From Chloroflexota bacterium (GTDB lineage Bacteria > Chloroflexota > Dehalococcoidia > Lucifugimonadales > UBA1127), in the NCBI GenBank assembly GCA_028873745.1, contig JAPPNT010000168.1, positions 1 through 32,261 of the forward strand: a stretch of 32,261 nucleotides of DNA. Reading direction: 5' to 3'. Both the position numbers and the translations under genes were made by a program. Position 1 is the stretch's first letter. Every line of letters begins with the position of its first letter. Shown piece by piece: positions 103-31,946 of the stretch. Under the pieces are notes generated by a model. The model ran no database searches. It had not been told where the DNA came from and saw nothing but the letters and a program-made list of their open reading frames with translations.

Positions 103-816
103 GTGATCGACCAGCCGCCTCCCAACGAGTATTCGGGCCGGATACACGACCTCCCCTCTGAGGAGCGCCCGCGGGAGCGGCTTCGCGACCAGGGACCCGG
201 CGCGCTCAGCAGCCATGAGCTCCTCGCCATTCTTCTCCGCACCGGCACCAGAGACGAGGACGTCTTCACCCTGTCGAAACGCCTCCTCGCCATGCGGCGG
301 GGACTTTCAGGGCTGGCCCAGACCAGCTTCGGCGAGCTGATGCAGCAGCACGGGCTGGGGCCGGCCAAGGCAGCCGAGGTGATGGCGGCGATGGAGCTCG
401 GCAAGCGGATCGCCTCGGTGCCCAGCGACGCCCGGACGCAGGTGAACTCGTCGGCGGACGTCGTAAACCTGCTGCTGCCGGAGATGATGTGGCTCAGCCG
501 GGAGAGCCTGCGGGTCATCCTGCTGAACACGCGGAACTACGTGTTGGGGGTCCGGGAGGTCTACAACGGCACGGTGAACTCCGCCGATGTGCGGGTAGGC
601 GAGGTGTTCCGGGACGCGGTGAGGGAGGACTGCAAGTCAGTCATCGTGGTGCACAACCACCCCTCGGGCGACCCGACGCCGAGCAACGAGGACGTGCAGG
701 TGACGGGCAAGCTGCGGGATGCAGGCAAACTGCTGGACATCGAGCTGCTCGACCACGTCATCCTGGCGCGCGACGGCCACGTGAGCCTGAAGGAGCGGCG
801 GCAGGGGTTCCCGTAG
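103..816 (+). CDS. radC: RadC-family JAB/MPN domain protein (UPF0758)
   Basis: N-terminal ERPRERL...G..ALS..ELLAILLRTG motif typical of RadC. C-terminal JAMM motif HNHPSGDPTPSNED. GTG start preceded by AGGGAGGA. Confidence 0.85.
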   Translation: MIDQPPPNEYSGRIHDLPSEERPRERLRDQGPGALSSHELLAILLRTGTRDEDVFTLSKRLLAMRRGLSGLAQTSFGELMQQHGLGPAKAAEVMAAMELGKRIASVPSDARTQVNSSADVVNLLLPEMMWLSRESLRVILLNTRNYVLGVREVYNGTVNSADVRVGEVFRDAVREDCKSVIVVHNHPSGDPTPSNEDVQVTGKLRDAGKLLDIELLDHVILARDGHVSLKERRQGFP

Positions 817-871
817 GCTCCGGCCACACAGCCGACAGCCGCCTCACGGGGCAGAAAGCAGGCATTCACCC

Positions 872-2170
872 TTGAGCACGGGACCCCACGCACGACAGCG
901 CCCACGCCGTTACTACGGCTGGGTCATTGTCTGGGTCACCGTGCTCTCAGCCATCGCGTCGGCCGTCGTCATTAACCCGACCATCGGCGTCTTCGTCAAG
1001 CCGATGGAGGAGACCTTCGACTGGAACCGCTCCGTCATCGCGGGCGCGGTGGCTATCGGCACCCTCGCGGGCGGGGTGATTGCGCTTGTGATTGGGCCGA
1101 TCATCGACCGGTTCGGAGCCAAGTGGGTGCTGTTCACCGCGTTCCTGATCGTCGGCGGCCTCTTCGTCGCATGGAGCGGCGTCACCTCGCTCTGGCAGTT
1201 CTACGCCGTCATCATCCTCGCCCGGATGCTGCTGCAGGGGATGATCAACCTCACCAACCAGACGGTGCTGGCCAAGTGGTTCGTGCGGCTGCGGGGGCGG
1301 GCGCTGGCCTACGGCAACCTGGGGCAGCGGTTCGGGCAGGGCGCGGTGCCGGTGATGACGCAGCTCATCATCACGGGGGCCGGGTGGCGATGGGCCGCTG
1401 CCTCGCTGGGCATCTTCGCGTGGACGCTGACGCTCATTCCGGTGCTGCTCTGGATGCGGCGGCAGCCGGAGGACATGGGCCTCCGCCCAGACGGCGACAC
1501 GCCCGTGCGGGAGGGGGCATCCGCAGCAGCCGACGACCGCGAACGGCGGCCACCGTCGACTGAGATCCACTTCACGCTACGCGAAGCATTGCGGACCCGG
1601 ACGTTCTATATCCTGCTGGCCGTCCTGTGCATCACGAGCTTCGTCAACACAGGCATCAACTTCAACTTCATCCCATACATGAGCGACCAGGGACTGACCG
1701 AGGGCGAAGTGGCCGTCGTCATCCTTGTGTGGTCGCTGATCGGCATTCCTGCCGCGCTGGCCGCCGGGCTGCTGGTGGAGCGGATTCCGGTGCAGGCGGT
1801 GCTGGGTGGGTTCCAACTCGGGATGGCCGTGGGGACGCTGATGCTCATCTGGCTGGTCAACCTCCCAATGGGGCTCGTGTTTGCCGTCGTACAGGGCACG
1901 GCGTTCGGCGGCAGCTTGCTTGCGCAGCAGGTCATCCTGGCCGACTACTACGGCTCACGTCACCTGGGAGCGATCCGGGGCGCGGTGCTGCCGTGGCAGA
2001 TGGCGTCGAACGCCATCGGGCCGCTGGCGGCGACTCTCGTCTTCGACACACAGGGCAGCTACACGATTGTCTTCTGGGCGTACGTCGCCATGCAGTCGCT
2101 GGTGTTTCTGGCGCTGCTGGCGGCGCGGAAGCCGCGGCACCATGCGGTTGAGGCGGCGGGCGAGGGCTAG
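872..2170 (+). CDS. MFS transporter
   Basis: 432 aa, about 12 hydrophobic segments split by a charged central loop (RRQPEDMGLRPDGD). TTG start with a weak SD, so the start is uncertain. Confidence 0.75.
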   Translation: MSTGPHARQRPRRYYGWVIVWVTVLSAIASAVVINPTIGVFVKPMEETFDWNRSVIAGAVAIGTLAGGVIALVIGPIIDRFGAKWVLFTAFLIVGGLFVAWSGVTSLWQFYAVIILARMLLQGMINLTNQTVLAKWFVRLRGRALAYGNLGQRFGQGAVPVMTQLIITGAGWRWAAASLGIFAWTLTLIPVLLWMRRQPEDMGLRPDGDTPVREGASAAADDRERRPPSTEIHFTLREALRTRTFYILLAVLCITSFVNTGINFNFIPYMSDQGLTEGEVAVVILVWSLIGIPAALAAGLLVERIPVQAVLGGFQLGMAVGTLMLIWLVNLPMGLVFAVVQGTAFGGSLLAQQVILADYYGSRHLGAIRGAVLPWQMASNAIGPLAATLVFDTQGSYTIVFWAYVAMQSLVFLALLAARKPRHHAVEAAGEG

Positions 2171-5274: not shown

Positions 5275-5417
5275 CGTCTCATCGCCGTTGCACGTATGGG
5301 CGCAACCTTGTGAGCATACCTGCTGAGAGGCTCGCGTAGCAAGGGACGGGCTTCGGGGTGCGTACGGGCTCGATGTGGTGCACAATGAGGGTGGCGAGCA
5401 CGCTGCAGGAGAGAGCG

Positions 5418-6911
5418 ATGACGGAAGCGACGCGAGGGGCGATCTACGCGCCGGAGTTCCCGGAGGGTCTGGAGTGGCTGAACACTGACACCCCCGTCCG
5501 GCTTGAGGACCTGCGGGGCAAGCTGGTACTCCTGGACTTCTGGACCTTCTGCTGAGTCAACTGCATGCACATACTTCCGCAGTTGCGGAAGCTGGAAGAG
5601 GCCTACCCACAGGAGCTGGTGGTCATCGGCGTGCACTCCGCCAAGTTTCCGGCGGAGAAGGAGACCGACGCTCTCCGGCAGGCCATCCTCCGCTACGACA
5701 TCCGGCATCCCGTGGTGAACGACAGCAACTTCCAGGTCTGGCAACGATACGCAGCACGCGCGTGGCCCTCGTTGTACATTGTCGACCCGGAAGGCAAAGT
5801 GCTCGGCAAGCACGAGGGCGAGTACCGCTTCGAGGACCTCGATCACTTCCTCCACCCGCTCATCGAGGCTTTCGACATCAAGGGACTCATCCAGCGGAGC
5901 CCGACGGCGTGGACGCTGGAGCGAGACAAGCAGGCCGCCGAAAACGCGCTCGCATTCCCAGGCAAACTGCTCGCCGACGAGGTGGGCGGCCGCCTGTTCA
6001 TCGCGGACTCCGGACACCATCGCATAGTCGTGGCGACGATGGACGGTGAGCTGTGCGACGTCATCGGCAACGGCGAAGCCGGGTTAACGAACGGCGCGTT
6101 CGGCGACGCGCGGTTCAACGACCCGCAAGGCATGGCGCTCGACGGCGAAACGCTGTACGTGGCCGACAAGGAGAACCACGCGCTACGGAGGGTGGATCTC
6201 ACCGAGAGAACGGTGGAGACGATCTCAGGGACCGGGCAGGCAGCAATGACCTTCATGCCGCCGGGCCCGGCGAAAGGCATGCCGCTGCGCTCGCCGTGGG
6301 ACGTGACCGTCCTCAACGGCACGCTGTACATCGCGATGGCGGGGACGCACCAGCTCTGGTCGCTCGACCTGACGAGCGGAAACATCGGCCCCTTTGCGGG
6401 CAGCGGCCGCGAAGGGCTGAGCGACGGCCCGCTGAAGCAGGCGTGGCTCGCCCAGCCAACGGGCATCGACCACGACGGCGAGGGTCGGTTGTACTTCGCG
6501 GACAGCGAGACGAGCGCGGTGCGGACCGCGAGCACCGACCCTGGCGGCAGCGTAGAGACGCTCGTAGGCATCGACCTCTTCGACTTTGGCGACCGGGACG
6601 GCGTCGGGCAACGGGCGCTGCTGCAGCACGTGCAGGGGGTGTGCTATGGCGACGGCGTGCTGTACATAGCGGACACGTACAACAGCAAGATCAAGCGCAT
6701 CGACCCGCTGACAAAGGAGACGACGACGCTGTTCGGCGGAATGGAACCGGGTCTGCGGGACGGCGCGTGGAGCGACGGCCGGCTGAACGAGCCGTCGGGC
6801 GTCGACTGCGCGGGCGACCGGCTGTACATCGCGGACACCAACAATCACGCGATCCGCGTGGCGGATCTCGACACGGGCGAGGTGACGACACTGGAATTGC
6901 GTGGATTGTAA
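5418..6911 (+). CDS. thioredoxin-like domain + six NHL-repeat beta-propeller protein, predicted selenoprotein (TGA 5553-5555 read as Sec)
   Basis: ORFs 5358-5555 and 5565-6911 share one frame and are separated only by TGA. Across the junction the translation reads LLDFWTFC-[TGA]-VNCMH, matching the CCxxC redox motif of NHLRC2-like Trx-NHL proteins with the CxxC N-terminal Cys replaced. ATG at 5418 follows AGGAG. Six NHL-like repeats follow ([50 protein letters not shown]). Confidence 0.7.
5574..5591 (+). promoter_or_regulatory. SECIS-like stem-loop downstream of the in-frame UGA
   Basis: CUUCCGC-AGUU-GCGGAAG: perfect 7-bp stem and a 4-nt apical loop containing GU. The stem starts 18 nt after the UGA and the loop is 25 nt after it, which fits the spacing I recall for bacterial SECIS elements. 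Confidence 0.5.
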
Positions 6912-7014: not shown

Positions 7015-7248
7015 ATGCTGGAATCCGCCATCACCTCCAAAGGCCAGACCACCCTGCCCAAAGGCGTCAGGGATGCGCTAGCCGTAGAGGCTGGAGACAA
7101 AGTGAGGTACGCCATTGTGGACAATGGCGTGCTGATACTCCCTGTACGCTCCATCAAAAGGCTGTACGGAGCACTGCCGTATGACGGCCCGCCCGTGACC
7201 CTAGAAGAGATGGACGAGGCCATCGCGGCGGGAGCGGCGGGCAGGTGA
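7015..7248 (+). CDS. vapB: AbrB/SpoVT-fold antitoxin (VapB-like)
   Basis: 77 aa. N-terminal SKGQTTLPKGVRDAL swapped-hairpin motif. AGGAGAG SD. The stop overlaps the downstream PIN gene start (GTGA). Confidence 0.8.
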   Translation: MLESAITSKGQTTLPKGVRDALAVEAGDKVRYAIVDNGVLILPVRSIKRLYGALPYDGPPVTLEEMDEAIAAGAAGR

Positions 7249-7643
7249 TTAGCCTGGACACCAACGTGCTCATACGCTATCTCGTGCGGGACGACGCCGA
7301 GCAGGCAGAGGTGGCTCGGGAACTGCTGGAGGGCCTGACTGAACACAACCAGGGTTTCATATGCCGGGAAGTCACCACCGAGATGGTCTGGGTGCTTGAA
7401 CGATCATACCGGTTCACCCGGGAACAAATTGCGGACGTTCTTCTTGAGATGCTCGCCACGGATGGGCTTGCCTTTGAGAACGACAGGGACGTCACGCATG
7501 CCGTCGAAAGCTACCGCTTGGGCGGGCCCGACTTTGCGGACCAAGTGATCCTGTCAGCGGCCAACCGCAACGGGGCCATGCCGCTCTACACATTCGACCG
7601 CAAGTTCTCCCGCATGTACGGGACAGTCCTTCTGGAGAGCTAG
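7245..7643 (+). CDS. vapC: PIN-domain ribonuclease toxin (VapC)
   Basis: 132 aa. N-terminal LDTNVLIRYL with the first acidic PIN residue and further acidic residues downstream. 4-nt overlap with the antitoxin. Confidence 0.85.
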   Translation: MISLDTNVLIRYLVRDDAEQAEVARELLEGLTEHNQGFICREVTTEMVWVLERSYRFTREQIADVLLEMLATDGLAFENDRDVTHAVESYRLGGPDFADQVILSAANRNGAMPLYTFDRKFSRMYGTVLLES

Positions 7644-8165: not shown

Positions 8166-9242
8166 ATGCGGCCAACGCCACTCCATGAGTCCCAAGAAAA
8201 GCTCGGTGCACGGTTTGCAGACCTGGCCGGGTGGGCCGTTGCGAGTCGTTTCGACGACGTGAGAGACGAATACGAGGCGGCACGCACAGGCGCGGCCATC
8301 GCCGACGTTTCACATCGCGGGCGCATCGTTGCGCGGGGCAAGGACACGCTCGACCTGCTGAACCGGCTGAGCACGAACCTTGTCGACCCGCTGCCGGAGG
8401 GCGCGGGGCAGACGACCGTCATCACAACCGGCAAAGGGCGCGTCCACGACTGGATCACCGTGCTGCCCTGGGGGGAGCATTTCCTGTTGTTGACCTCGCC
8501 GGAGCGCCGGACGGAAGTCGCCGAATGGATCGACATGTTCACCTTCGAGGAGGACACGACGCTGGAGGACGTTACCGAGTCGACGGCAACGGTGTCGATT
8601 CTGGGTCCCCCCGCGGAGTCCGTGGTGGCGCAACTGCTCGACGTCCAGGTTGCCCCGCAGGCGCTCGGATGCGCCATCGCTGCGTGGCAGGGCAGCGAGG
8701 CGCTCGTCGTGCGGACTGATTCGACTGGTCAGCCCGGATTCGACATAGTCGTGCAGGCCGAGGCGGCGGAGGCGTTGTGGGACGCGGCCATCGGTTTCGG
8801 CGCGACGCCGGTGGGGCAGCAGGCGTTGGAGGCGTTGCGCATCGAGGCTCGTGTGCCGCGATGGGGCGATGAGTTCACGGACGACAACAACCCGTTGGAG
8901 GCGGGGCTGCTCGGAGAGGTCTCGTGGACCAAGGGATGCTACACGGGGCAGGAAGTTGTCGCGCGGCTGTACAATTACCACCGGATACAACGGTTCATGG
9001 TGGCCATCGAGGTGCCCTCGAACGCAGACATCATGGCGGGCACGGTCTTGATGGCCGACGGCGTGTCCGTTGGCCGGTTGACGAGCGTGTCGTCGATTGC
9101 GCACGATGGCGTGCAGGCGGCGCTGGCGTCGATCCGCTCGGGGCACGCAGCCGTAGGGACGACGCTCCACGTGGGCGAGAGCGGGCCGCCTGTCTCAATC
9201 ACCTGGGCCCCGGAGGAAGCGCAACAGGGTGCGGCGGCTTAG
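8166..9242 (+). CDS. ygfZ: YgfZ/CAF17-type folate-binding protein (GcvT-like fold)
   Basis: Aminomethyltransferase-like N-terminus (DVSHRGRIVARG) plus the YgfZ signature KGCYTGQE. Sits next to an A-type Fe-S carrier. Confidence 0.75.
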   Translation: MRPTPLHESQEKLGARFADLAGWAVASRFDDVRDEYEAARTGAAIADVSHRGRIVARGKDTLDLLNRLSTNLVDPLPEGAGQTTVITTGKGRVHDWITVLPWGEHFLLLTSPERRTEVAEWIDMFTFEEDTTLEDVTESTATVSILGPPAESVVAQLLDVQVAPQALGCAIAAWQGSEALVVRTDSTGQPGFDIVVQAEAAEALWDAAIGFGATPVGQQALEALRIEARVPRWGDEFTDDNNPLEAGLLGEVSWTKGCYTGQEVVARLYNYHRIQRFMVAIEVPSNADIMAGTVLMADGVSVGRLTSVSSIAHDGVQAALASIRSGHAAVGTTLHVGESGPPVSITWAPEEAQQGAAA

Positions 9243-13134: not shown

Positions 13135-14163
13135 CTAGCTTGCGGTGCGCGCCCGCAGCGCGTTCAGCTCATCTTCCAGCTTGCCGATCAGGCCGGTGTC
13201 ACATAGGCGGGCCGCGGTGCTCACCGCGCGGGCTATGCCGGCGGCGCTGGAACGCCCGTGCCCGACGACGACGTTGCCCTTGATGCCGAAGAGCGGCCCG
13301 CCGCCGTTGTACTCGGTGCGGTTGAGCAGGTCGTAGAGGTCACGGCCGATGGCAGCGGCGTCCTCGCCGGATACGTGGCCGGAGAGGCGCTCCGTAACGT
13401 ACTTCGACAGGCCGTCGCCGAGGCCCTCGATTGTCTTGAGCAGGATGTTGCCGACGAAGCCGTCGCAAACGACGACGTCGGCCTTGCCAGCGCCAAGGTC
13501 GTGGCCCTCGACGTTGCCGACGAAGTTGAGGCCGCTGGCCTGGAAGAGCGGGAAGGCTTCACGGGTCTGCCTGTTGCCCTTGCTCTCCTCCTCGCCCACG
13601 CTGAGGATGCCCACGCGCGGTTCAGCGACCTCCAGGTACGTGCGGCTGAAGGCGACGCCCAACGCGGCAAAGTCGACGAGCTGAGACGGCCGGCAGTCGA
13701 TGCTGCTGCCGAGCTCCATGAGGACGGTGTTGGGCGCGTAGCCGATGATGGGGCCGCCGAGGGCCGGACGCTCAAGGCCCTCCATCATGCCGAGGAGCAG
13801 GGCACTGGCGGCCATCGTCGCGCCGGTGGAACCCATCGTGACAAAGGCATCCGCAATGCCTTCCTTCACCATACCTACGCCAACGAGGGCGGATGCCTTC
13901 GGCTTGGCTCGCAGGGCCTGCATAGGGGACTCGCTGTCGAGGATGACGCCTTCCGAGGGGATGAGTTTGATGGGAAGCCCCTGCCCGGCCTGACGCTCAA
14001 GCTCGGGCTGGACGGCCTCGGGGTCGCCGACGAGGAGCACGGCAACACGGCCGCGGGCCTCCGTGACGGCGGCGACAGCGCCGGCAACAGTTTCAGGCGG
14101 ACCGTAATCACCGCCCATAGCGTCCAGCGCAATACGCAGGGGTTGTGCGGGTGAGTTCGTCAT
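13135..14163 (-). CDS. plsX: phosphate acyltransferase PlsX
   Basis: IALDAMGGDYGP N-terminus and VVCDGFVGNILLK motif. ATG at 14163. Confidence 0.9.
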   Translation of the reverse strand: MTNSPAQPLRIALDAMGGDYGPPETVAGAVAAVTEARGRVAVLLVGDPEAVQPELERQAGQGLPIKLIPSEGVILDSESPMQALRAKPKASALVGVGMVKEGIADAFVTMGSTGATMAASALLLGMMEGLERPALGGPIIGYAPNTVLMELGSSIDCRPSQLVDFAALGVAFSRTYLEVAEPRVGILSVGEEESKGNRQTREAFPLFQASGLNFVGNVEGHDLGAGKADVVVCDGFVGNILLKTIEGLGDGLSKYVTERLSGHVSGEDAAAIGRDLYDLLNRTEYNGGGPLFGIKGNVVVGHGRSSAAGIARAVSTAARLCDTGLIGKLEDELNALRARTAS

Positions 14164-14209
14164 CGGCTCCTCGCGCAGCAGGCGGCCCTGCCAAGTCAAT
14201 GATGGGCGG

Positions 14210-14239
14210 ATTATACGAAGCCTCGGTCAGGAATGGCAA
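14210..14239 (-). promoter_or_regulatory. sigma70-like promoter for plsX-fabG-fabL
   Basis: On the minus strand: TTGCCA (14239-14234), 18-nt spacer, consensus TATAAT (14215-14210), about 45 nt upstream of the plsX start. Confidence 0.45.
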
Positions 14240-14268
14240 GAAGAGGCGAGAACAGCGGCCGCCGCAGT

Positions 14269-17421: not shown

Positions 17422-18558
17422 TTGACCTCCGACGCTCCGCTTCTACGTACCGCCCTATATGAGAACCACGTTGCCGCCGGCGCTCGCATGGTGCCCTTTG
17501 CGGGGTGGGACATGCCCGTGCAGTACCAGGGCGTCATCGCAGAGGTGAAGGCGGTGCGGGGCGACGCGGGGATCTTCGACGTCTCGCACATGGGGAGGCT
17601 GAGCATCCACGGCGCGGGCGCGGCGTCCTTCATGGACAGCCTGGTCACGTTCAGCGTGATGACGCTGGCGACGGGGCGGGCGCGCTATGGCTTCATGCTG
17701 TCCGACAACGGCGGCATCCTTGACGACGTGATCCTGTACCACACGCAGTTCGAGGACGGGAGCGACATGCTGCGGCTGGTCTGCAACGCAGGCAACCGCG
17801 ACGCGGTGAAGGCGTGGATGGCGCAGCAATCGCAGGCGTTCCGCGGCGTCACCGTCATCGACCACACGGCGGACACCGTGCTGGTGGCGGTGCAGGGCCC
17901 GCGCGCGCTGGACATCGTCGACGGGCTCTGCCCGGACGAGCCGAAGCCCTCGGCGCTGCGGCCCTTTGGCGCGGCGCCCTTTCCGCTGACCGTCGGCGAC
18001 GGCGCGGTGGCGGAGGGCTTCATCGGCAGGACGGGCTACACGGGGGAGGACGGCGTCGAAATCGCGATGGAGGCCGCGTACGGGGGTCGACTGTGGGAGG
18101 CGCTCGCGGCGGCGGGGGCGACGCCGTGTGGGCTCGGCGCGCGGGACGTGCTGCGGCTGGAGGCCGGGCTGCGGCTTCACGGCTCCGACATGGACCTCAC
18201 GACGACGCCGCTGGAGGCCTCGCTGGAGCGCTTCGTCAACATGGACAAGGGCATCTTTCACGGGCGCGACGCGCTGGAACTGCAGGACGAGGACGGACTG
18301 CGGCGCAAGCTCGTTGGGTTCCGGATGCTCGGCGGGGGCGTGCCGCGTCACGGGTGCGATGTGCTGTACGAGGGCGAGACGATAGGCGAAATCACGAGCG
18401 GAACGTATTCGCCAATCCTTGACACTGGTATTGCCATGGGCTACGTTTCGGCCGAGCACACGGCCCCGGGCCAGCGCGTCCACATCGACCTTCGCGGGCG
18501 GCTTGTGGAGGCGGAAGTGGCCGAGCTTCCCTTCTACCGGCGCCCCAAATCCCAGTAA
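17422..18558 (+). CDS. gcvT: glycine cleavage system aminomethyltransferase (T protein)
   Basis: LYE.H...GA.MV.FAGW.MP.QY, DVSHMG and GYTGEDG.EI motifs. TTG start after GGAG. Confidence 0.9.
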   Translation: MTSDAPLLRTALYENHVAAGARMVPFAGWDMPVQYQGVIAEVKAVRGDAGIFDVSHMGRLSIHGAGAASFMDSLVTFSVMTLATGRARYGFMLSDNGGILDDVILYHTQFEDGSDMLRLVCNAGNRDAVKAWMAQQSQAFRGVTVIDHTADTVLVAVQGPRALDIVDGLCPDEPKPSALRPFGAAPFPLTVGDGAVAEGFIGRTGYTGEDGVEIAMEAAYGGRLWEALAAAGATPCGLGARDVLRLEAGLRLHGSDMDLTTTPLEASLERFVNMDKGIFHGRDALELQDEDGLRRKLVGFRMLGGGVPRHGCDVLYEGETIGEITSGTYSPILDTGIAMGYVSAEHTAPGQRVHIDLRGRLVEAEVAELPFYRRPKSQ

Positions 18559-18569
18559 CGGAGCACACC

Positions 18570-18956
18570 ATGACTGAGCACCCCCGCGAACTGCGCTACA
18601 CCATCGAACACGAGTGGGTGCGCGTTGAGGACGACGGCACGGCGACCATCGGCGTGACGTTCTTCGCGCAGGACCAGCTCGGCGACGTCGTGTACGTCGT
18701 GCTGCCGGCCGTCGGCTCGACGGTGCAGAAGGACAGCAAGATGGGCGAGATCGAATCGGTGAAGTCGGTCTCGGACCTGTTCGTGCCGGTGAGCGGCGAG
18801 GTGATCGAGACCAACCAGGACGTCATCGACCACCCGGAGCGGGTGAACGAGGACCCGCACGGGGCGGGCTGGATGGTGCGCGTCCGCATGTCCGATCCCT
18901 CGGAAGTGGACGGGCTGCTCACGAACGAGCAGTACGACAGCGCAATCGCGACGTAG
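18570..18956 (+). CDS. gcvH: glycine cleavage system H protein
   Basis: 128 aa with the lipoyl-lysine motif ESVKSVSD. Confidence 0.9.
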   Translation: MTEHPRELRYTIEHEWVRVEDDGTATIGVTFFAQDQLGDVVYVVLPAVGSTVQKDSKMGEIESVKSVSDLFVPVSGEVIETNQDVIDHPERVNEDPHGAGWMVRVRMSDPSEVDGLLTNEQYDSAIAT

Positions 18957-18969
18957 GGTGCAGGCGCAT

Positions 18970-20304
18970 ATGACCGACCCCTTTCCGCACTCCTACCTCC
19001 CGCACACCGAGGCCGAGCGCCAAGAAATGCTGGCCGTCATCGGCGTGGGGTCCGTGGATGAGCTCTTTGCCGACATCCCCGACGCGTTCCGCAATCCGGC
19101 GCTCTCGCTGCCGCCGGCGCTGACGGAGCTGGAGCTTTTCCGCGAGATTGGCGGGCTGGCCAAGCGGAACGCAGTCCCAGGCGACTACCCATGCTTCGTC
19201 GGCGGGGGCGTGTACCGCCATTTCATCCCGAGCGTCGTGGGCGCGATGATCTCTCGGGGCGAGTTTCTCACGTCGTACACGCCGTACCAGCCGGAGGTGA
19301 GCCAGGGCACGCTCCAGGCCACCTACGAGTACCAGAGCATGATTTCCGAGATCACCGGCATGGAGGCGGCCAACGCGGGCATGTACGACGGCGCGAGCTC
19401 CTTGGCGGAGGCGGCGCTCATGGCCTGTCGCGTCACAGGGCGACACAGCGTCATCGTCCATGACACGGTGAACCCTCGCTACCGGGCCGTCGTCGACACG
19501 TACCTGCTGCCGCAGGGCGTCGAGATAGCGACGTGCGCGCCGGGGAGCGAGGCTTTCTCGGACGCGACGGCGTGCGTGCTGGCGCAGTACCCGGACTACT
19601 ACGGCGTGGTGCGCGACCTGACGCCGCTGGCCGACAGGGCGCACGAGGCAGGCGCGCTGCTGGCCGTGAGCGCGGACCCGGTGGCGCTGGGCATGTTCCG
19701 CGCGCCGGGCGACATGGGCGCGGACATCGTCACGGGCGAAACGCAGCCCATCGGCGTCAACATGAGCTTCGGCGGGCCGTACGTCGGCTACTTTGCGTGC
19801 AAAATGGCGTACATCCGGCAGATGCCGGGGCGCATCGCCGGGCGCACCGTCGACCACGAGGGACGCATCGGGTACGCGCTGACGCTGCAGACGCGGGAGC
19901 AGCACATCCGGCGAGAGCGGGCGACGTCCAACATCTGCACGTCGGAAGCGCTCATCGCGACGGGGACCGCCGTTGCGCTCGCCGCGCTGGGGCCGGGCGG
20001 ACTGCGGCAGATGGCGGAGTTGAGCTACCAGAAGGCGCACTACGCGGCGTCGGAGATCGGCGCGCTGGATGGGTATGAGGTGATCGACAACGGGGCGTGG
20101 TTCAACGAGTTCGTCGTGCGGTGCCCGCTGATGGGCTCTCAGATGAACGCCAGCTTGTGGCGGCGGGGCATCATCGGCGGCATCGACGTGGGGGAGGCGG
20201 TCGAGAACGGGCTGCTGCTGAGCGTCACGGAGATGAACACGCGCGAGGAGATCGACGCGCTCGTCGGGGCGCTGCGGGAGATTGCGGAAGGGGGCGCGCG
20301 GTGA
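18970..20304 (+). CDS. gcvPA: glycine dehydrogenase (decarboxylating) subunit 1
   Basis: N-terminus YLPHTEAERQEML and TPYQPE.SQG motif. ATG at 18970; an upstream GTG at 18958 is possible. Confidence 0.9.
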   Translation: MTDPFPHSYLPHTEAERQEMLAVIGVGSVDELFADIPDAFRNPALSLPPALTELELFREIGGLAKRNAVPGDYPCFVGGGVYRHFIPSVVGAMISRGEFLTSYTPYQPEVSQGTLQATYEYQSMISEITGMEAANAGMYDGASSLAEAALMACRVTGRHSVIVHDTVNPRYRAVVDTYLLPQGVEIATCAPGSEAFSDATACVLAQYPDYYGVVRDLTPLADRAHEAGALLAVSADPVALGMFRAPGDMGADIVTGETQPIGVNMSFGGPYVGYFACKMAYIRQMPGRIAGRTVDHEGRIGYALTLQTREQHIRRERATSNICTSEALIATGTAVALAALGPGGLRQMAELSYQKAHYAASEIGALDGYEVIDNGAWFNEFVVRCPLMGSQMNASLWRRGIIGGIDVGEAVENGLLLSVTEMNTREEIDALVGALREIAEGGAR

Positions 20305-21776
20305 CGATGGAAGCCGCGTCCACCCAGCGGACGCACCAGTCGCTCTGGGACGTGGCCCGGCCGGGGCGCTCGGGCATTCGCCTGCCGGAGTCGGACGTGC
20401 CGGCGCAGGCGATGCCGGAGGCGTCGCTGCTGCGGGACGAGCTGCGGCTGCCGGAGGTCTCGGAGCTGGACGTGGTGCGGCACTTCACGCGGCTGTCGCA
20501 GATGAACTTCGCGGTGGACACCAACTTCTACCCGCTAGGCTCCTGCACGATGAAGTACAACCCCAAGATCAACGACGTCGTGGCGTCGCAAGCAGGGTTC
20601 TCGGGGATCCACCCGCTGCAGCCGGAGGAGACGGTGCAGGGGGCGCTGGAGCTGATGCACCGGCTGCAGGAGGACCTGCAGGCAGTCACAGGCATGCCAG
20701 CGAGCTCGCTGGCGCCGCTCGCAGGGGCGCACGGCGAGCTGGCGGGCGTGCTGATGATCAAGGCGTACCACGATGCGCGCGGGGAGTCCGACCGCAAGGT
20801 CATGCTCATCCCGGACAGCGCCCACGGCACGAACCCGGCATCAGCGGCGATGGGCGGTTTCGAGGTGGTCTCGGTGCCCTCGGACGAGATGGGCCGCGTG
20901 GACCTAGCGGCGGTGGAGGCGGCGTGCGACGACAGGCTCGCGGGGCTGATGATCACCATCCCCAACACGCTGGGGCTGTTCAACCCGTACATTGCGCGGG
21001 TGTGCGAGCTGGTGCACGGCGCGGGCGGGCTGGTCTACGGCGACGGCGCGAACATGAACGCGCTGCTGGGCCGGGCGCGGCCATACGACCTGGGCTTCGA
21101 CGTGGTGCACCTGAACCTGCACAAGACGATGAGCACGCCGCACGGCGGCGGCGGGCCGGGCGCCGGCCCGGTGTGCGTCGGCGAGCGGCTGGAGCCCTAC
21201 CTACCATCGCCCGTGGTGGAGCGCGTGGATGCGGACGGCGGCGCGCGGTACCGCTTCGCGACGCCGACGCAGTCCATCGGTGCGATGTCGGCGGGGCACG
21301 GCAACTTCGGCGTGCTGGTGCGGGCGTACACGTACCTGCGAGCGCTGGGGGCCGACGGCCTTCGGCAGGCGAGCGGCGACGCGGTACTGAACGCCAACTA
21401 CCTGCGCCGCAAGCTGGAGCACGTCTACCGCGTCGCCGTCGACCGGACATGCATGCACGAAGTCGTCTTCTCCTGCCGACCGCAGCGGGACAAGGGCGTC
21501 AAGGCGCTCGACATATCCAAGCGGATGATCGACTACGGCGTACACCCGCCGACGATGTACTTCCCGCTCATCGTAGACGAGGCGCTGATGGTGGAGCCGA
21601 CGGAAACGGAGAGCAAAGAGACGCTCGACGCGTTCATCGCCGTCATGGAGGCCATCGCGCGCGAGGTGGAGGAGTCGCCGGACGTGCTGCTCGAAGCGCC
21701 GCACTTCACGCCCGTCGGCCGCCTCGACGAGGCGCGTGCGGCGCGGCAACCTGACCTGCGCTGGCAGGCGCCGTAG
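20301..21776 (+). CDS. gcvPB: glycine dehydrogenase (decarboxylating) subunit 2
   Basis: PLGSCTMKYNP and PLP-lysine region NLHKT.S.PHGGGGPG. GTG at 20301 overlaps the gcvPA stop (GTGA). ATG at 20307 is the alternative start. Confidence 0.9.
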   Translation: MTMEAASTQRTHQSLWDVARPGRSGIRLPESDVPAQAMPEASLLRDELRLPEVSELDVVRHFTRLSQMNFAVDTNFYPLGSCTMKYNPKINDVVASQAGFSGIHPLQPEETVQGALELMHRLQEDLQAVTGMPASSLAPLAGAHGELAGVLMIKAYHDARGESDRKVMLIPDSAHGTNPASAAMGGFEVVSVPSDEMGRVDLAAVEAACDDRLAGLMITIPNTLGLFNPYIARVCELVHGAGGLVYGDGANMNALLGRARPYDLGFDVVHLNLHKTMSTPHGGGGPGAGPVCVGERLEPYLPSPVVERVDADGGARYRFATPTQSIGAMSAGHGNFGVLVRAYTYLRALGADGLRQASGDAVLNANYLRRKLEHVYRVAVDRTCMHEVVFSCRPQRDKGVKALDISKRMIDYGVHPPTMYFPLIVDEALMVEPTETESKETLDAFIAVMEAIAREVEESPDVLLEAPHFTPVGRLDEARAARQPDLRWQAP

Positions 21777-21830: not shown

Positions 21831-21906
21831 GCGCGGCGTAGCTCAGTGGTAGAGCCCTTGCTTCCCAAGCAAGTTGTCGTGGGTTCGACTCCCATCGCCC
21901 GCTCCA
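21831..21906 (+). tRNA. tRNA-Gly (anticodon CCC) with encoded CCA and an extra nucleotide in the 5' acceptor strand
   Basis: Cloverleaf read by hand: D arm GCTC/GAGC, anticodon arm CTTGC-TTCCCAA-GCAAG, T arm GTGGG-TTCGACT-CCCAT, 3' acceptor CGCCCGC-T-CCA. From memory it resembles E. coli tRNA-Gly(CCC). The 5' strand is GCGCGGCG (8 nt) where GCGGGCG is expected. Confidence 0.75.
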
Positions 21907-29967: not shown

Positions 29968-31578
<1,611 letters not shown>

Positions 31579-31620
31579 TCCGCTAACCCCCTTGGCCGAA
31601 CTGCCTTCGGCCGGTTGCTG

Positions 31621-31883
31621 CAAACAACAAAAGACCCGCCCCAACAAGGGACGGGCTTGGAAACCCGCGGTACCACCCTTTTTCCACCGCCGGCACCTTC
31701 GCCGGGGTGACGCTCTGCAGGGCGCCATCACGCCCCTTCCCGGTAACGGCGGGAGGCCGTCGCGCCTACTGGGTGTTTCAGCGCGATGCTCAGGAGGGAT
31801 TTTCACCGGGCGCCCGCCTGTCCGCTCTCACCGTACCGGACTCGCTGGAGGCTGCCTTCCCGGCTACTCGTCTCCGTCAACGC
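31621..31883 (-). promoter_or_regulatory. T-box leader, specifier AUC (Ile), with terminator/antiterminator
   Basis: Minus strand elements:
- GA/K-turn region, with the GAGUA (AGUA) element in the specifier loop.
- AG bulge AGCGA and distal loop GGUGAGAG.
- Specifier loop UGAAA-AUC-C (AUC at 31800-31798).
- F-box CCGUUA.
- T-box AAAGGGUGGUACCGCGGG (UGGU at 31675-31672).
- Terminator GCCCGUCCC-UUGUU-GGGGCGGGU followed by CUUUUGUUGUUU (31656-31621). Confidence 0.8.
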
Positions 31884-31946
31884 ACGGTACAGGCTAGCAT
31901 GGCGGCGCGGGGAGGGTCAAGACGGCGGGGGATGGGGGGCCTAGGC

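Follow-up and report, generated by a model that had tools for sequence, protein, structure and literature searches.

The closest described relatives of the gene analysed here are human NHLRC2 and Arabidopsis SOQ1, in which a thioredoxin (Trx)-like domain is followed by an NHL beta-propeller. In the crystal structure of NHLRC2, the active-site motif lies at the N-terminus of helix alpha-1, in a conserved cleft that separates the Trx-like domain from the propeller, and the protein fails in the insulin reduction assay (PMC6107167). The redox pair of SOQ1 is C431-C434, and its Trx-like domain hands electrons to a C-terminal domain that has methionine sulfoxide reductase activity (10.1101/2024.11.01.621559). 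Selenocysteine (Sec) is known from Trx-fold families with a UxxC motif, namely the peroxiredoxin (Prx)-like thiol:disulfide oxidoreductases (PF00578), Redoxin (PF08534) and the TlpA-like proteins (cd02966) (PMC13188914, Table 1; PMC2398784, Table 2). We analysed a stretch of 32,261 nucleotides from a Dehalococcoidia bacterium (contig JAPPNT010000168.1; the whole stretch is referred to as the window). Judged by sequence comparison, positions 5418-6911 very probably constitute a Sec-encoding gene of the NHLRC2/SOQ1 type, in which a UGA codon specifies Sec at the CxxC active site. We favor this reading because the site forms a Sec/Cys pair with its homologs, the TGA is conserved, a covarying hairpin is found in TGA forms only, synonymous sites within that hairpin are frozen, and relatives possess Sec machinery.

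The original prediction had described two open reading frames (ORFs) in one shared frame, parted by a single stop codon, and the sequence bears this out: the TGA at 5553-5555 is the sole in-frame interruption between the ORF at 5358/5418-5555 and the ORF at 5565-6911. From the ATG at 5418 to the TAA at 6909-6911, the frame comprises 497 codons, including the one TGA, plus the stop. Translation across the TGA yields a 497-residue product that begins MTEATRG and contains the anticipated DFWTFC-U-VNCMH, with UxxC at the CxxC of the Trx-fold domain. The ATG at 5418 is the best start for the upstream ORF, with AGGAGAG preceding it as a plausible ribosome-binding site, and GGAGAG ahead of the matching ATG is also kept in the homologous loci L001 and L002. 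The identical TGA is present in two further assemblies of the same sample, an ENA scaffold and a Logan contig. Gene coordinates in the ENA scaffold (L083) are shifted by 15 nt relative to the window beyond ~14.2 kb (window ~14150-14260), indicating a small indel difference between the assemblies.

The read-through product contains the two domains that define the described relatives. Pfam identified the Trx-like domain through Thioredoxin_8 (55.2 bits), AhpC-TSA (PF00578, 44.9 bits) and Redoxin (PF08534, 26.9 bits), and the domain passes the cut-offs of the latter two models (26 and 26.6 bits, respectively). The NHL repeats expected in the downstream ORF were likewise detected by Pfam, and they form a propeller right after the Trx-like domain, in an arrangement collinear with solved structures. 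In the Protein Data Bank (PDB), two sequences match over the full length: 7DJJ, the lumenal part of SOQ1 from Arabidopsis (E = 1.8e-127, residues 8-496), and 6GC1, human NHLRC2 (E = 9.5e-115, residues 10-492). DipZ, ResA and TlpA match less well, and over the Trx-like domain alone. Within the NHL region, the SOQ1 construct 7DJM aligns over residues 174-496 and NHLRC2 6G7W over residues 177-492, and the propeller probably has six blades, to judge from the NHLRC2 structure. No NCBIfam model reaches its cut-off on the gene. Aligned residue by residue with SOQ1 (“LDFWTYCCINCMH”), the window protein has its U opposite the second Cys of CCINC, which is C431 in SOQ1 and corresponds to Cys-90 in the human numbering of PMC6107167.

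The window protein shares with NHLRC2 and SOQ1 the motif context DFWT[YF]C-x-[IV]NCMH and a candidate cis-Pro context, AWP. It differs from them in having UGA in place of the codon for the motif's second Cys, accompanied by an in-frame hairpin that would serve as a selenocysteine insertion sequence (SECIS), and in lacking the HAD domain and the transmembrane helix. The protein also stops at the propeller, lacking the beta-stranded C-terminal domain with its second Cys pair. This domain is not strictly defining for the family, because it is poorly conserved and many bacterial homologs do without it (PMC6107167). On these sequence alignments, the protein is a bacterial NHLRC2/SOQ1-type Trx-like-NHL enzyme, for which catalysis is predicted. 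With a Trx-/Prx-like domain that passes a family model and a UxxC motif, it also resembles the Prx-like, redoxin and TlpA-like selenoproteins, with which it has in common the fold class, Sec at the attacking position and a putative SECIS just 3' of the UGA. By their descriptions, those families consist of the Trx- or Prx-like domain alone, whereas the window protein adds an NHL propeller and a CUxxC motif.

To place the TGA in its family context, we surveyed one genome per GTDB species. This returned 80 loci and, together with loci obtained earlier, 79 could be scored at the aligned codon. The C-x-(V/I)-N-C active-site motif is conserved across all of them. TGA occupies the aligned codon in 52 of the 79 loci, as FWT[YF]C-TGA-[VI]NC; these comprise 50 species-representative genomes and two extra assemblies of the window's clade. 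The other 27 have TGC or TGT, and Cys is the only alternative residue seen. The search for a Cys opposite the TGA was thus answered by these 27 loci and by the CCINC of SOQ1. The TGA forms are mostly Dehalococcoidia, including the closest representative (L003, OZ244559.1, 84% identity), and extend to Thermomicrobia, Chloroflexia, Rokubacteria, Gemmataceae, SAR202 and the cultured Fervidibacter sacchari PD1. The Cys forms include Blastocatellia, Latescibacterota, Brocadiaceae, Binatia and Armatimonadota. The TGA is conserved at protein identities down to ~52%.

Codon comparisons with the three nearest relatives of the window's gene, loci L001-L003, revealed the same mode of evolution on either side of the TGA. 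The 45 codons upstream contain 11-17 synonymous and 6-8 non-synonymous codon differences, and the 45 codons downstream contain 12-14 synonymous and 6-8 non-synonymous ones. Each 45-codon flank carries 18-23 differences, mostly synonymous, compared with 0-1 in the 45 nt from the TGA. Among the homologs, third codon positions change while the encoded residues stay the same. As far as codon substitutions can tell, this is coding-type evolution in one frame across both flanks, with both halves under purifying selection. Homologs that consistently end at the TGA were not seen; the 45 upstream codons are conserved in frame. The claim of a single 497-codon selenoprotein is therefore supported by the conserved TGA, the coding character of both flanks and the covarying hairpin of the TGA forms, which is described below.

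The hairpin begins 18 nt past the UGA and has a perfect 7-bp stem with GU in its loop, all as originally proposed. It sits within the stretch that encodes L-P-Q-L-R-K (P-D-L-K-K in Cys forms) and is confined to TGA forms. Its two arms, alignment columns 28-34 and 39-45, pair in 98.5% of cells among 49 distinct sequences of the TGA form, a value that falls to 31-72% when the partner is slid by 1-3 columns. Compensatory changes occur in four of the seven pairs (UA to CG or the reverse in 12 sequences, UA/GC in three, GC/CG in one and CG/GU in one). The mean minimum free energy (MFE) of the 33-nt hairpin segment is -10.2 kcal/mol in Sec forms versus -2.8 kcal/mol in Cys forms, with a p-value (3.6e-12) that is indicative only, the sequences being related. 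At third codon positions between +23 and +35, Sec forms have an entropy of about 0-0.46 bits and Cys forms one of 0.95-1.86 bits; the codons flanking this segment are equally variable in both.

The hairpin agrees with descriptions of bacterial SECIS elements. The element of E. coli fdhF has a bulged U and starts ~11 nt after the UGA, whereas the stem in the window is a simple 7 bp, has no bulged U and starts at 18 nt. The two are alike in being hairpins within the coding sequence with a small GU-containing loop, and the spacing and stability of the window hairpin fall within the bSECISearch consensus for fdhF-type elements. The published bacterial SECIS model specifies a loop of 3-9 nt with G in its first two positions, an upper stem of 4-16 bp, a UGA-to-loop distance of 16-37 nt and an MFE of at most -7.5 kcal/mol (PMC13188914, Fig. 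2A). With a 4-nt loop that has G at position 2 followed by U, a 7-bp stem, 25 nt between UGA and loop, and an MFE of -11.5 kcal/mol, the window hairpin agrees with all four stem-loop features, so that the suggested check for a SECIS downstream of the UGA had a positive outcome. The hairpin core, CCGCAGUUGCGG, is specific to this gene family, and its binding by SelB is predicted. Coordinates of the gene and its features are collected in Table 1.

Table 1 Features of the predicted selenoprotein gene in the window
Feature	Position	Strand	Details
Predicted selenoprotein coding sequence (Trx-like domain, then NHL beta-propeller)	5418-6911	+	497 codons including one predicted Sec, plus TAA
Possible extended -10 promoter element TGTGGTGCACAAT	5374-5386	+	~30 nt upstream of the ribosome-binding site
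Shine-Dalgarno-like AGGAGAG	5407-5413	+	4 nt before ATG 5418, read from the sequence; plausible ribosome-binding site
Trx-like (TlpA/DipZ/redoxin-type) domain	5481-5825	+	Residues 22-136; Pfam; DipZ and ResA in the PDB also match
Active-site motif C-U-V-N-C (TGC TGA GTC AAC TGC)	5550-5564	+	Equivalent to CC(I/V)NC of NHLRC2 and SOQ1
Predicted Sec-encoding UGA	5553-5555	+	First Cys of the redox CxxC; equivalent to SOQ1 C431 and human NHLRC2 Cys-90
Predicted SECIS hairpin	5574-5591	+	5' arm 5574-5580 CUUCCGC, loop 5581-5584 AGUU, 3' arm 5585-5591 GCGGAAG
NHL beta-propeller	5937-6905	+	Residues ~174-496; Pfam NHL, E = 3.8e-30

Several observations weigh against the Sec reading and were set against this evidence. 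On the RNA side, none of 500 shuffles attained the observed pairing and covariation values, but the sequences are related and such counts are not probabilities. In single-sequence folding, the 81-nt fold is unexceptional relative to shuffles (z = -0.09), and no Rfam SECIS family matches positions 5400-5750, even at permissive E-values. An alternative helix, CAACUGC (5558-5564) with GCAGUUG (5579-5585), is kept equally well (98.3%). Since it shows no double substitutions and the Asn and Cys codons hold its 5' arm constant, covariation speaks neither for it nor against it. Furthermore, a perfect 7-bp hairpin in the allowed range after a given TGA would arise by chance in about 1% of cases, on a rough estimate. 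The hairpin alone is thus unremarkable, and the comparative evidence is decisive, because the same TGA and hairpin recur in 52 of the 79 loci and the stem covaries.

On the side of the machinery, a tRNA search and tblastn with E. coli SelA, SelB and SelD found no tRNA-Sec, selA, selB or selD in the window, and no SelA could be placed on the same contigs as the Trx-NHL genes of its closest relatives. ARAGORN found no tRNA-Sec on 50 TGA-form loci. Other TGA-form relatives do provide such a link. In L011, a Dehalococcoidia metagenome-assembled genome (MAG), selA lies at 664-2037 (- strand), ~8 kb upstream of the Trx-NHL gene, and encodes an L-seryl-tRNA(Sec) selenium transferase that is 44% identical to E. 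coli SelA. This linkage is not kept in the sister locus L007. Apart from it, tblastn of the window and all loci returned a weak SelB-like match in the Cys-form locus L064 (27% over 173 residues, E = 4e-7). Homologs of the L011 SelA are plentiful in what appear to be Dehalococcoidia-related assemblies, and the few matches that have a name are labelled as Dehalococcoidia. Another TGA form, L028, comes from Dehalococcoidia bacterium UBA1141; with 49 selenoprotein genes listed in BSepDB, this organism is one of the ten bacteria richest in them (PMC13326102, Table 2). At the level of the family, the Sec trait can thus be read from these genomes; for the window's own organism we infer it, because the TGA and the hairpin are strictly conserved in its clade.

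Two SelA candidates were discarded as links to the window's lineage. P0237 belongs to a marine TARA lineage, and P0205 comes from the same sample as a 1.89-Mb contig of the window's lineage (ERZ26167216:ctg495568, which carries P0005) but lies on another contig, with a coverage of 3.81x versus 16.85x. A further SelA, P0239, is Dehalococcoidia-like and 65% identical to that of L011; it is labelled as a Stenotrophomonas maltophilia MAG at NCBI and is probably contaminated or mis-binned.

The strongest of the competing explanations is that the UGA is read through without Sec, by near-cognate Trp or Cys, by Cys inserted via the Sec machinery, or by a lineage-wide reassignment of UGA, with the hairpin acting as a general stimulator of read-through. 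Its appeal lies in the fact that Sec machinery was found in relatives and not in the window, and in the rarity of TGA as a stop. Of the stops in 25 heuristically defined window genes, 20 are TAG, three TAA and two TGA, which could hint at weak termination at UGA; the window has 66% G+C, and in bacteria of high GC content the stop used most often is usually TGA. On the other hand, TGA does end other genes of the window, including one with an ATGA start/stop overlap, and a scan for in-frame TGAs with coding-like flanks produced no second candidate in a thiol-oxidoreductase-like context, which together make a genome-wide reassignment unlikely. Moreover, the site is that of the nucleophilic Cys of a CxxC, a classic position for Sec where Cys is the sole alternative, the hairpin fits the SelB-type SECIS model, and relatives with the TGA carry selA or are catalogued Sec users. 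We consequently consider read-through without Sec to be improbable.

A TAG bias was also observed in L001 (12 of 17) and L003 (11 of 17), and L002 has a plurality of TAG only (9 of 19). The bias is missing from the more distant TGA-form loci L004, L028 and L041. Perhaps a lineage that uses Sec avoids UGA, or the bias may stem from release-factor usage.

Still less probable, in our view, is that the region comprises two real genes, a 45-residue peptide that ends at the TGA and a separate 448-residue NHL protein that starts at ATG 5565. This is exactly the split made by every gene caller, and the original prediction had foreseen that gene callers might split the gene. In a protein search with Cys in place of the stop, all of the 120 best hits above ~61% identity, plus several at 59-60%, are truncated to ~443-453 residues (one is a 390-residue fragment) and start at the Met of NCMH; full-length hits (497-712 residues) begin at ~60% identity. 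On the contigs, a called 45-residue ORF ends 9 nt upstream of each truncated gene. The truncated form appears in the GenBank, RefSeq, IMG and ENA-derived entries that were checked, including RefSeq WP_326522700.1 from the complete genome of the cultured F. sacchari PD1. However, as predicted for the downstream ORF, no ribosome-binding site precedes ATG 5565 in the window sequence. Several of the TGA-form homologs have Leu, Ala or Val in place of its Met, so that ATG 5565 is not a conserved start. The split would also sever the Trx fold in the middle of the CxxC, and there is no break here in the Cys-form homologs, in SOQ1 or in NHLRC2. Taken as one Sec-encoding gene, this is a widespread gene that is systematically mis-called as a 45-residue ORF and a truncated “NHL / YncE / thioredoxin-like domain” protein.

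That the gene is a pseudogene, its TGA an error of sequencing or assembly or a recent nonsense mutation, has next to nothing to recommend it: a single in-frame stop in an otherwise intact gene and a related locus with a broken upstream frame (L039) would suit it, but the same TGA recurs in 52 loci from independent assemblies of several phyla and in three assemblies of this sample, both halves are under purifying selection, and a dedicated hairpin covaries with the TGA.

The phylogenetic distribution of the Sec forms is compatible with a single lineage. In a neighbor-joining tree they form one clade, save for one nested Cys form, L072, from a Thermobaculum sp. MAG. L072 has TGC at codon ~9989 and is the only Cys form nested in the Sec clade; it retains the peptide LPHLRKLEEKY, and its hairpin is unpaired. 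This is consistent with a reversion from Sec to Cys followed by decay of the SECIS. The locus with the broken frame, L039 (a Chloroflexia MAG), has just 18 codons open upstream of its TGA (9989), a break that is due either to genuine loss of the gene's function or to an indel in the assembly. Its 3' hairpin arm is displaced by one base, which creates a 5-nt loop (AGUUG) and changes the peptide to LPQLAEVE. The shifted arm with the altered peptide suggests selection on the RNA rather than on the peptide, a point on which we do not lean given the broken upstream frame.

Sec and Cys forms also differ in length. The residues after U number 447-464 in all 52 Sec forms and, at the equivalent point, 523-611 in 21 long Cys forms. 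These 21 of the 27 Cys forms have an extra C-terminal domain, and most of them have hydrophobic N-termini. No obvious signal peptide is present at the N-termini of the Sec forms, including that of the window protein, which is therefore probably cytoplasmic. The upstream frame of the Fervidibacter locus (L041) holds a hydrophobic stretch, which makes its true start uncertain.

We propose the following mechanism on the basis of the canonical pathway and of what is known of the family. During translation, the UGA at 5553-5555 would be decoded as Sec, with the hairpin at 5574-5591 acting as a bacterial SECIS that recruits SelB with Sec-tRNA(Sec). Sec would then occupy the N-terminal, attacking position of the CxxC pair in C-U-V-N-C. 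Its selenolate may attack an oxidised sulfur of a client held by the propeller, such as a disulfide, a sulfenate or possibly an intermediate derived from methionine sulfoxide, as in SOQ1, and the resulting selenenylsulfide would be resolved by the downstream Cys (5562-5564). Since the Sec clade has no C-terminal domain, the acceptor would be a separate protein, or the cleft between Trx-like domain and propeller would act on the substrate directly.

Upstream of the gene, TGTGGTGCACAAT is identical or near-identical at the same offset in L001, L002, L003 and L065 and is absent elsewhere among the loci. Its position and conservation make it a candidate for an extended -10 promoter or an operator. 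Downstream, a pair of genes for a PrlF/MazE-type antitoxin and a PIN toxin (7015-7643, + strand) lies between the selenoprotein gene and a HesB-like gene. In L002 (11459-12516) the antitoxin gene is duplicated, and in the syntenic locus L001 the toxin-antitoxin pair is absent. The module looks like an insertion into a conserved neighborhood. HesB-like proteins are a known selenoprotein family; the one in the window is a Cys form. A second GcvT-like gene (8166-9242, + strand) adjoins the HesB-like gene and a molybdenum hydroxylase of the xanthine/aldehyde dehydrogenase family. The window also holds a complete glycine cleavage operon (gcvT, gcvH, gcvPA and gcvPB; 17422-21776, + strand). A 71-nt tRNA at 21833-21903 (+ strand; Rfam, 55.9 bits), missed by ARAGORN, has the anticodon CCC (Gly) by eye and is not a tRNA-Sec. 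Finally, a 2-isopropylmalate synthase-like gene with HMGL-like and LeuA_dimer domains (29968-31806, - strand) has a T-box leader upstream (31644-31889, - strand; 96.1 bits) that is presumably Leu-responsive.

The recoding mechanism itself is not new, since selenoproteins that have a Trx fold, a UxxC motif and a SECIS downstream have long been known and are numerous. The protein family is another matter. Neither “NHL” nor “propeller” occurs in a 2026 review of more than 110 selenoprotein families (PMC13188914), and “NHL” is absent from the main text of BSepDB, the deep-Sep paper, the GOS paper and Peng et al. 2016. In the literature searched, no paper ties NHLRC2 or SOQ1 to Sec or selenoproteins, in agreement with the original prediction, which knew of no Sec-containing member of the Trx-NHL family. 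The gene may already be filed in catalogues of the BSepDB type under a generic Trx-like label. We therefore see the chances as evenly divided on whether this is the first recognised Sec-containing clade of the NHLRC2/SOQ1 family, one that is large (50 of 80 sampled species-representative genomes), mostly Dehalococcoidia and without the C-terminal domain.

NHLRC2 is essential in mammals and is mutated in FINCA disease, and its enzymatic activity is undefined. Pairs of Sec and Cys are well established as marks of cysteines with a catalytic redox role. Natural Sec in place of the second Cys in CC(I/V)NC thus argues that the family carries out real redox catalysis at that residue. If the Sec reading is true, finding Sec where the human protein has Cys-90 and SOQ1 has C431 would indicate, on evolutionary grounds, that a catalytic redox nucleophile sits here, and would imply that the Trx-like domain and the propeller can serve together in redox catalysis when the C-terminal domain is missing. 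The Sec form would be a naturally hyper-reactive ortholog, usable for substrate trapping, and the putative SECIS inside the L-P-Q-L-R-K codons would be a clean case of an RNA element that constrains a protein sequence.

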